This document shows, one piece after another, positions 1 to 4,159 of a stretch of DNA of 4,159 bases. The translations under genes and the position numbers were made by a program. Each line of letters starts with the position of its first letter. Positions within the stretch are counted from its first letter, which is position 1. A model generated the notes under the pieces. That model saw only the letters and a program-made list of their open reading frames with translations. It had not been told where the DNA came from and made no database searches. The stretch comes from a virus (lineage: Duplodnaviria > Heunggongvirae > Uroviricota > Caudoviricetes), in IMG/VR virus record IMGVR_UViG_2534681835_000023, positions 1 to 4,159 of that record; one strand, 5' to 3'.

Positions 1-747
1 CCGGTGAGCGTGGCCATCACTGCACACCCCGCGCCGGACCGGATACAGGTCAGCACCCTGCCTGATGGTGTGGAGACATACGGTGTATGGGGACTCTCCC
101 TGCCGTCACTGCGTCGTCGCCTGTTCCGCTGTGTCTCCGTCCGGGAAAACACGGACGGCACCTTTGCCATCACGGCGGTGCAGCACGTACCGGAAAAAGA
201 AGCCATCGTGGATAACGGGGCCAGCTTTGAGCCACTGTCCGGTTCGCTGAACAGCGTCATCCCGCCGGCTGTGCAGCACCTGACGGTGGAGGTGAGCGCG
301 GCTGACGGTCAGTATCTGGCACAGGCGAAATGGGACACGCCGCGGGTGGTGAAGGGCGTGCGCTTCAGTCTGCGCCTGACCAGCGGAAGCGGAGAAGACA
401 GCCGTCTGGTGACCACCGCCATCACTGCGGATACAGAGCATCGTTTCAGTGGTCTGCCGCTCGGGGAATACACCCTGACAGTCAGGGCGATTAACAGTTA
501 TGGCCAGCAGGGGGAACCGGCCACCACCACGTTCAGGATTAATGCACCTGCGGTACCCGCCACGATTGAGCTGACGCCGGGCTATTTTCAGATAACAGCG
601 GTCCCGCGTCTTGCGGTGTATGACCCGACGGTACAGTTTGAGTTCTGGTTTTCGGAGACAAAAAATCGCAGACACATCTCAGGTGGAAACCTCTGCCCGT
701 TATCTGGGGACCGGCAGTCAGTGGAGTGTATCCGGCCCGCACATTAA
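1..747 (+). CDS. J-like host-specificity protein, fragment A (frame 1, 5'-partial); J homology ends near 657
   Basis: Open frame from the window edge to TAA at 745-747. Residues ~85-180 ([10 protein letters not shown]...[26 protein letters not shown]) look like a fibronectin-III-like beta module of the kind found in J proteins. The last ~30 codons ([17 protein letters not shown]...) are out-of-frame read-through. Confidence 0.75.
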
Positions 748-1357
748 GCCCGGGAAGGATTTCTGGTTTTACGTGCGCAGCGTCAACCTGGTGGGGAAAC
801 CTGCTTTTGTGGAAGCCAGTGGCCGGGCCAGCAATGATGCAGAAGGGTATCTGGGGCTGTTTCGGGAAAAAATAGGAAAACTGCATCTGGCTCAGGGGCT
901 GTGGGAGCTGATAGACAACAGCCAGCTTGCGGATAAGATGGCGGAGATGAAGACCTCCATCACCGAAACCCGCAATGAAATCACACAGAGGGTCAGTAAA
1001 ACGCTGGAGGACCAGAGCGCCACCATACAGCAGATACAGCGCGTGCAGAAGGACACAAATGATGACCTTGCTGCACTTTACATGCTGAAGCTACAGAAAA
1101 CAAAAAATGGCATACCCTATGTTGCCGGTATTGGAGCGGGGATTGAGGATACTGATGGCCAGCCCCTGAGCAACATACTGCTGCTGGCTGACCGTATCGC
1201 GATGATAAATCCGGAGAGCGGCAACAGCACGCCGTTATTTGTGGCGCAGGGGAATCAGCTGTTCATGAACGACGTGTTCCTGAAGCGACTGTTTGCGGTG
1301 AGTATCACGTCATCCGGCAACCCCCCGACGTTTTCCCTGACGCCGGAAGGGAGCTGA
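611..1357 (+). CDS. J-like host-specificity protein, fragment B (frame 2); J homology ~659..1351
   Basis: The frame-2 ORF carries the central J-like motifs. The listed start at 611 is a TTG inside the overlap with fragment A and is not a real initiation site. Confidence 0.7.
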
Positions 1358-1482
1358 CAGCCAGGAACGCGGATATCAGCGGAGCAATTACCGCGAATAC
1401 CGGCACGCTCAATAATGTCACCATTAACGAGAACTGTGTCATCAGAGGGAAACTGTCTGCAAACCAGATTGAAGGCGACCTG

Positions 1483-1890
1483 GTGAAGACGGTGGGGAAA
1501 GCCTTTCCCCGGAATAACAGTTATGCCAGCGGGACGGTAACCGTCACAGTTTACGATGACCAGGGCTTCGACCGGCAGATCATCATTCCCCCGGTGCTGT
1601 TTCGCGGGACGAAACACCAGAATTTCAACAGCCCGAATCAGCAGTCGTACTGGTATTCCACCTGTAAGCTGCAGGTGCTGAAGAACGGGGTTGAGATTTT
1701 CCATGAACCGGCAACGGATGTCAGCCGGGTGTTCTCATCGGTGATAGATATGCCGGCAGGGCGGGGTCATGTCACCCTGACGTTTAATGTGTCGTCGGCC
1801 GGTGCGAACAACTGGACGCCGACAACGTACATCAGTGATTTACTGGTTGTGGTCATGAAAAAATCCACAGCAGGGATCAGTATCAGCTGA
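1483..1890 (+). CDS. J-like host-specificity protein, fragment C (frame 1), C-terminal putative receptor-binding region
   Basis: Frame 1 is open from 1192. J-like homology resumes at ~1351 ([29 protein letters not shown]...). The GTG at 1483 is only the first start codon in an ORF finder's sense. It ends at TGA 1888-1890, followed by an intrinsic terminator. Confidence 0.7.
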
Positions 1891-1907
1891 ATTTTATAAC
1901 CCAGAAC

Positions 1908-1932
1908 GGGCGTCAGAAATGACGCCTTTTTT
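1908..1932 (+). terminator. Rho-independent terminator after the J-like gene
   Basis: Stem GGCGTCA (1909-1915), loop GAAA, stem TGACGCC (1920-1926), then TTTTTT (1927-1932). Confidence 0.75.
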
Positions 1933-1956
1933 ATTGCAGAAAAGCGAGAGGTAATT

Positions 1957-2556
1957 ATGCGTAAACTTTATGCCGCCATTTTGTCCGCAGCCATTTGTCT
2001 GGCCGTATCCGGTGCACCTGCATGGGCGTCTGAACATCAGTCCACGCTGAGCGCGGAGTACCTTCATGCCTCGACGAACGTTCCCGGCAGCGATGATCTG
2101 AACGGGATTAACGTGAAATACCGTTATGAGTTTACGGACACACTGGGGATGGTGACGTCATTCAGCTATGCAGGAGACAGGAATCGCCAGCTGACCCATT
2201 ACAGCGATACCCGCTGGCATGAAGGTTCCGTTCGTAACCGCTGGTTCAGCGTAATGGCGGGGCCGTCTGTGCGCGTGAATGAATGGTTCAGCGCGTATGC
2301 GATGGCGGGTGTGGCTTACAGCCGTGTGTCGACTTTCTCCGGGGATTATCTCCGCGTAACTGACAACAAGGGGAAAACGCACGATGTGCTGACCGGAAGT
2401 GATGACGGTCGCCACAGCAACACGTCTCTGGCGTGGGGGGCTGGCGTGCAGTTTAACCCGACCGAATCCGTGGCCATTGATATTGCTTATGAAGGCTCCG
2501 GCAGTGGCGACTGGCGCACTGACGGTTTCATCGTGGGTGTCGGTTATAAGTTCTGA
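1957..2556 (+). CDS. lom: Lom outer-membrane protein (Ail/Lom/OmpX/PagC family 8-stranded beta-barrel), prophage lysogenic-conversion moron
   Basis: 199-aa ORF with GAGAGG Shine-Dalgarno at 1946-1951, 5 nt before ATG 1957. N-terminal signal peptide MRKLYAAILSAAICLAVSGAPAWA with an AxA cleavage site. Near-identical at the N-terminus to lambda Lom as recalled. Alternating aromatic/hydrophobic beta-strand pattern and a C-terminal ...GVGYKF ending in Phe, the outer-membrane beta-signal. Confidence 0.93.
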   Translation: MRKLYAAILSAAICLAVSGAPAWASEHQSTLSAEYLHASTNVPGSDDLNGINVKYRYEFTDTLGMVTSFSYAGDRNRQLTHYSDTRWHEGSVRNRWFSVMAGPSVRVNEWFSAYAMAGVAYSRVSTFSGDYLRVTDNKGKTHDVLTGSDDGRHSNTSLAWGAGVQFNPTESVAIDIAYEGSGSGDWRTDGFIVGVGYKF

Positions 2557-2583
2557 TTAGCCAGGTAACTACAGTGTTATGAC

Positions 2584-2610
2584 AGCCCGCCGGTTCAGGC
2601 GGGCTTTTTT
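2584..2610 (+). terminator. Rho-independent terminator after lom
   Basis: Stem AGCCCGCC (2584-2591), loop GGTTCA, stem GGCGGGCT (2598-2605), then a T-run to 2610. Confidence 0.8.
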
Positions 2611-2621
2611 GTGGGGTGAAT

Positions 2622-3890
<1,269 letters not shown>

Positions 3891-3910
3891 CATGAACGTC
3901 TAAAAAACTT

Positions 3911-4159
3911 ATGCAGCGTCTGTGCGGGTACGGAAAGCATGATGACCGTGAACACGGGGAGTTACTTACAGCACAACTGCGTCTGGGGCCGGCAGACATC
4001 CTGGAGTCAGATGAGAATGGCATTATCCCGGAGCAGGACAGGGTAATCACGCAGGTGGTGATACTGGATGCGGATAAAAAGCAGATACAGTGCGTGGTAA
4101 GACCGCTGCAAATCCTGCGTGCTGACGGGACGTGGGAAAATGTTGGCGGGATGAAATAG
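3911..4159 (+). CDS. Hypothetical protein; diverged paralogue of the Stf-like C-terminal domain (possible alternative or remnant fibre-tip cassette)
   Basis: 82-aa ORF, ATG 3911 to TAG 4157-4159, with no clear Shine-Dalgarno sequence upstream. Residues ~20-75 (AQLRLGPADILESDENGIIPEQDRVITQVVILDADKKQIQCVVRPLQILRADGTWENV) align with the Stf C-terminus ([61 protein letters not shown]). A 14-nt identical core, cgtctggggccggc, sits at 3672-3685 and 3980-3993. Confidence 0.5.
   Translation: MQRLCGYGKHDDREHGELLTAQLRLGPADILESDENGIIPEQDRVITQVVILDADKKQIQCVVRPLQILRADGTWENVGGMK

Follow-up and report, generated by a model that had tools for sequence, protein, structure and literature searches.

Distal tail genes at the end of a draft contig

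The window, by which we mean the whole stretch of 4,159 nt that was analyzed, corresponds to nt 1-4159 of the draft contig AIGJ01000026.1 in assembly GCA_000249875.2. This contig was the single one returned by an exact-protein look-up of the Lom protein encoded in the window. The AIGJ prefix is assigned to E. coli DEC 8E (O111:H8) in the strain table of PMC4959244. The source is a whole-genome shotgun draft from 2012, and the window starts at the contig end, inside gene J. On the 3′ side of the window, the draft contig contains a tccP2/espF-like effector gene, an espV remnant, tRNA-Ser, and the hya and app operons. Because the contig runs on into tRNA-Ser and hya, the window represents the distal end of a lambdoid prophage that is integrated at tRNA-Ser, next to the hya operon.

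The genes of the window all lie on the plus strand. J, the gene for the lambda-type tip attachment (host specificity) protein, occupies nt 1-1890. It is cut by the contig end at nt 1, and the 3′ 1,890 nt correspond to the last 629 codons and the stop codon. The lom gene (1957-2556) encodes an outer-membrane beta-barrel protein of the Ail/Lom type with 199 amino acids (Pfam Ail_Lom, E = 3e-119). Strong terminator-like hairpins with T runs are located 3′ of J (1908-1937, predicted solely by a consensus scan) and 3′ of lom (2584-2615); therefore, lom appears to be transcribed as a separate unit between these two hairpins, as in lambda.

A side tail fibre gene of the stf type follows at 2622-3890 (422 amino acids; Pfam phage_tail_N, Collagen, and Phage_fiber_C). 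It contains an uninterrupted collagen-like Gly-X-Y tract of 96 residues (nt 3372-3659), and in-frame length differences of 36 and 45 nt are found among the relatives near nt 3572. The last gene (3911-4159) encodes a tail fibre assembly-like (Tfa) protein of 82 amino acids with a Phage_fiber_C domain, identical to the annotated WP_001401301.1. Its start is polymorphic. In two relatives, L002 and L003 (BP-4795), the run at 3901-3906 is longer by one A; the ATG at 3892 is then in frame, and Tfa has 89 residues, whereas only the ATG at 3911 is in frame in the window and in strain 8E, giving the 82-residue form.

Strain 8E has 10-11 places that match the block in the window, and other genomes have up to 18; the block is thus multi-copy. 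In the related hya-locus prophages of non-O111 strains (L004 and L006, at 1753-2280 in both), the gene for a Cu/Zn superoxide dismutase, sodC, separates the tail assembly gene from J and is encoded on the opposite strand; strain 8E lacks sodC at this place.

Identity of J and its two frame breaks

The deposited J consists of three frame segments within its 3′ 1,890 nt. Frame 1 is open from nt 1 (ORF 4-747) to a TAA at 745-747, which closes the reading 85 nt past the first indel. Frame 2 is open from 596 to a TGA at 1355-1357, and frame 1 reopens at about 1192 and stays open until the stop codon of J at 1888-1890. Alignment to six, and then to fifteen, intact relatives revealed exactly two one-base indels within the gene. 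At the first, the run a660-a665 is longer by one A, being A6 in the window and A5 in all of the relatives (GAGACAAAAAATC versus GAGACAAAAATC); this additional base shifts the reading from frame 1 to frame 2. The second is the absence of an A beside a1352, where the window has GGGAGCTG and the relatives have GGGAAGCTG. At this junction (1349-1357), the window reads GGGAGCTGA in place of GGGAAGCTGA, and the missing base generates the TGA at 1355-1357.

A first-pass annotation made from the letters of the window had located two frameshifts at ~659 and ~1351, had described them as a +1 insertion and a -1 deletion, respectively, and had predicted that translation stops at 745-747. The positions, both directions, and the TAA are all borne out by the open reading frames and alignments, and the alignment to intact J homologues that it had proposed placed the indels at A660-665 and a1352. 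It had also regarded both sites as homopolymer-type. This fits the A run at 660-665, but the label is loose for the second site, where A2 is changed to A1.

When one A is dropped at the first site and one is added at the second, an uninterrupted reading of 629 codons is obtained. The Pfam families Ig_J (E = 1.7e-41), Ig_J_second (5.5e-38), Phage_Tail_Tip (1e-22), and Ig_GpJ_C (1.3e-38) are found in this order in the repaired reading, and the same families are on record for the three J fragments. A phmmer comparison with lambda J (PDB 8IYK, chain J) gave E = 3e-212 over J residues 530-1132, colinear across both junctions, with query residues 1-305 matching J 530-836 and query residues 327-628 matching J 831-1131. 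The tail operon ends distally with J-lom-stf-tfa, which is the neighbourhood of a lambda-type J. With all of the tested family features present, this is an ordinary lambda J family gene carried by a lambdoid prophage of the EHEC type. Bacteriophage lambda gpJ (PDB 8IYK/8XCG) shares with it the four C-terminal Pfam domains and the adjoining lom, stf, and tfa genes. However, the J of the window has diverged from lambda gpJ in the central coiled region (approximately residues 305-330 of the fragment) and in the receptor-binding C-terminal domain, as have other EHEC prophage J proteins, and its reading frame, as deposited, is broken twice.

The first-pass annotation had found it notable that the two shifts restore the frame exactly. 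We attach no weight to this coincidence. Ten frame-1 stop codons lie between the two indel sites; therefore, the second indel is unable to rescue translation that began upstream, and selection for compensation between the two indels is not a viable idea. Moreover, two independent indels of one base have opposite signs with a probability of one half. The exact compensation of the J frameshifts is without functional meaning.

Comparison with strain 8E and other copies of the block

Of the 5,426 complete E. coli genomes searched, the one that best matched the whole window was CP077465.1, deposited as 'E. coli O111:H8 strain 8E', with 99.7% identity, and the second best was a strain without an O111 label (98.9%). 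No genome in this set besides 8E, O111 or other, matched the whole window at more than 98.9%; therefore, 8E stands alone among the finished genomes searched in having the tail block at more than 99%. In 8E, gpJ (WP_423742736.1) is annotated as intact, with 3,477 nt and 1158 amino acids. It shares 99.6% nucleotide identity with the window over nt 1-1900, and the gene order, the tRNA-Ser/hya locus, and the flank are the same. ORF72 of the Stx1-converting phage BP-4795 shares 97.9% nucleotide identity over the same range as well as the gene order. The J genes of 8E and BP-4795 are both intact at 1158 amino acids, whereas that of the window has the additional A at 660-665 and lacks the A at 1352. 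Besides these two indels, five substitutions distinguish the J of the window from that of 8E, and the repaired reading differs from the 8E protein at 3 residues.

A global alignment of the draft contig with 8E over 13,890 nt gave 12 point differences, comprising 8 substitutions and 4 one-base indels. All 12 are located within nt 139-3899, in the stretch that recurs in the lambdoid prophages of the strain, and there are no point differences over the 9.7 kb of nt 4160-13890. If the differences were evenly spread, the probability that all 12 would lie within the first 3,899 nt is 2.4e-7. One of the substitutions is at position 2225 in lom, where the window has G and 8E has A (Gly for Asp). The two indels outside J are an extra T at 2570, in the spacer between lom and stf, and a missing A between t3899 and c3900, in the spacer between stf and tfa. 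The signs of the four indels alternate (+, -, +, -), and the length of the window equals that of the 8E sequence; with four events, this alternation is unremarkable.

The sole difference in nt 4160-13890 is one 141-nt tandem-repeat unit that is absent from the tccP2-like gene of the draft. This tccP2/espF-like gene (4307-4783 of the draft contig) has 3.4 copies of the 141-nt repeat and a product of 250 amino acids. The corresponding genes of 8E and of O111:H- 11128 have one more unit and encode 297 amino acids. The shorter gene is probably due to repeat collapse, which is typical of drafts.

Strain '8E' is very likely DEC 8E sequenced again. We infer this identity because the name and the serotype agree, the 9.7-kb flank is perfect, and 8E is the sole complete genome that keeps the tail block at this locus. 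The flank by itself discriminates weakly between strains because in other O111 genomes it is nearly the same, with approximately 1 nt changed per 4 kb. A literature search returned no paper on the CP0774xx accessions.

The discrepancy could also be read in the opposite direction, namely that the draft is right and the finished genome is wrong. Polishing artefacts are known in multi-copy prophage regions, and polishing with short reads may have pulled this copy of the block to the paralogue majority and erased genuine indels; 8E has the majority state at all four indel sites. However, four separate over-corrections would be needed, each of which recreates the state of every other relative, and 8E retains bases unlike those of several relatives at 139, 357, 3374, and 3397. 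The collapsed 141-nt repeat is an independent sign that it is the draft that has the lower fidelity. We therefore consider over-polishing of 8E very improbable.

The junctions were then compared with all homologous places in the 5,426 complete genomes. The first junction as written (window 630-690, 61 nt) had no exact match among 1,910 homologous places, and the second (window 1320-1385, 66 nt) had none among 903. In both searches, every best match was separated from the window by a one-base gap. An index of 153 billion gene positions, which takes in independent assemblies of public read sets, contained the 194-residue fragment called by the gene caller of the draft (ORF 773-1357) in no contig besides the draft. 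Exact-sequence look-ups of the Lom and Stf variants of the window in this index also returned the draft contig alone. The frame of J is thus disrupted in the deposited sequence, but no independent sequence, whether from the same strain or a sister strain, was found to share the disruption.

Relative to the 15 aligned relatives, the states private to the window are the four indels (+A at 660-665, -A at 1352, +T at 2570, and -A at 3899/3900), two of which are in the intergenic spacers, where selection is no consideration, and two substitutions, 800C and 1091C. Neither of these substitutions was found in an otherwise identical background among 3,105 places, where the best match was 99.4%; simple borrowing of 800C or 1091C from a near-identical paralogue was rejected on this ground. 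Private one-base indels are also seen in a genome deposited as 'complete', that of strain 13E0725 (NZ_CP020092.1). It has about a dozen of them in the region homologous to window 1-4159, and its J is annotated as four fragments and its lom as frameshifted. These indels look like assembly error, not prophage decay.

The distribution of the junction sequences also bears on programmed recoding. Full-length J would be made if tRNA-Lys slipped by +1 on AAA-A at 661-664, or if transcription slipped on the A6 run, and if a -1 shift then took place near GGG-A at 1349-1352; as read from the sequence, the +1 slip on AAA_A would restore the exact wild-type reading E-T-K-I-A. However, neither shifted site occurs in any homologue; A5 and GGGAAG, both in frame, are present in all 15 aligned relatives and at all of the database places. 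At the second site, there is no option for slippery re-pairing. An A6 run is too short for efficient transcriptional slippage, and two independent events of low efficiency would yield a negligible product. The lack of conservation of a shift-requiring slippery sequence effectively refutes recoding, to which we give almost no credence.

Origin of the indels

The two frameshifts in J are very probably consensus errors at the repeat-derived end of a draft contig, and J in the organism is most likely intact with 1158 residues. The genome has about ten near-identical copies of the distal tail block (the 3′ half of J, lom, stf, and tfa), and these copies may have led the assembler to break the contig inside J. 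The consensus of the last ~3.9 kb may have been built from poorly resolved, probably mixed, reads. Such a consensus would account for all four one-base indels (+A 660, -A 1352, +T 2570, and -A 3899/3900), which would be spurious, and for several bases that were miscalled or taken from paralogues. The two indels within J would then mimic a compensating frameshift pair.

We infer a poor consensus, and not mutation in the organism, because the contig break is inside J, the errors are confined to the repeat, one-base indels are in excess, and the adjoining tandem repeat is collapsed. In each of these respects, the window resembles consensus errors at the repeat-derived ends of draft contigs, in which the break lies inside a multi-copy gene and the differences are restricted to the repeated block. 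If indels constitute about a tenth of natural point mutations, as in mutation-accumulation studies of E. coli, the probability of 4 indels among the 12 differences from 8E is 0.026, and that of 4 indels among the 6 private states is 0.0013. In addition, 6 of the 12 differences between the draft and 8E (139G, 321A, 357C, 2225G, 3374A, and 3397A) are bases found in other copies of J, lom, or stf. This suggests that reads of paralogous prophages contributed to the assembly and that the consensus may be chimeric.

The alternative offered by the first-pass annotation, that both frameshifts are sequencing errors of the homopolymer type, is supported in that an error is indicated, but generic miscalling of homopolymers is insufficient as the sole cause. 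Only one of the four indels (660-665) is in a run of at least 5 bases, and all 31 runs of at least 5 bases in the adjacent 9.7 kb are free of errors relative to 8E. The classical 454-type error model explains the four indels poorly.

The first-pass annotation had preferred a decaying or cryptic prophage, in which J lacks its receptor-binding end. This suggestion is contradicted by the intact J of 8E, very probably the same strain, and by the other homologous places searched, from all of which the indels are absent. In its strongest form, it would state that the frameshifts were real in the DEC 8E culture that was sequenced in 2012 and that J was a pseudogene there, 8E being another isolate or stock, or one in which J was converted from one of the ~ten paralogues. 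Tail genes do decay in this lineage. In the orthologous tRNA-Ser/hya prophage of O111:H- 11128 (NC_013364.1, 1140187-1158187), the lysis genes are followed by IS1203 and then tccP2, and nothing is left of the tail region, with J, lom, stf, and tfa all missing; this loss is genuine prophage decay in the same clone. Gene conversion would also restrict the differences to the repeated block, as is seen, and 3 of the 4 amino-acid-relevant substitutions that were first scored as private are non-synonymous, which fits relaxed selection.

However, real mutations would have to account for four indels that are unique among thousands of homologous places and occur in no independent assembly, and for a ratio of indels to substitutions far above natural spectra. 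The indels in the two spacers gain nothing from a pseudogene argument, and the absence of differences in the 9.7-kb flank is contrary to a diverged isolate. We consider real frameshifts in the 2012 culture unlikely. If they were real, two knockouts of J of the tccP2 prophage at tRNA-Ser would have occurred within a short span of evolution, and +1 slippage on A6 might have restored traces of the protein; we likewise regard this outcome as unlikely.

The double frameshift in J is almost certainly a database artefact of the draft assembly and not a real feature. Its biological value is small; even if it were true, one more inactivated J in an EHEC lambdoid prophage would be routine. Where 'compensating frameshifts' appear in a prophage tail gene at the end of a draft contig, a finished genome or the reads should be consulted before pseudogenization or decay is scored; otherwise, the tally of intact and cryptic prophages in EHEC drafts would be biased.
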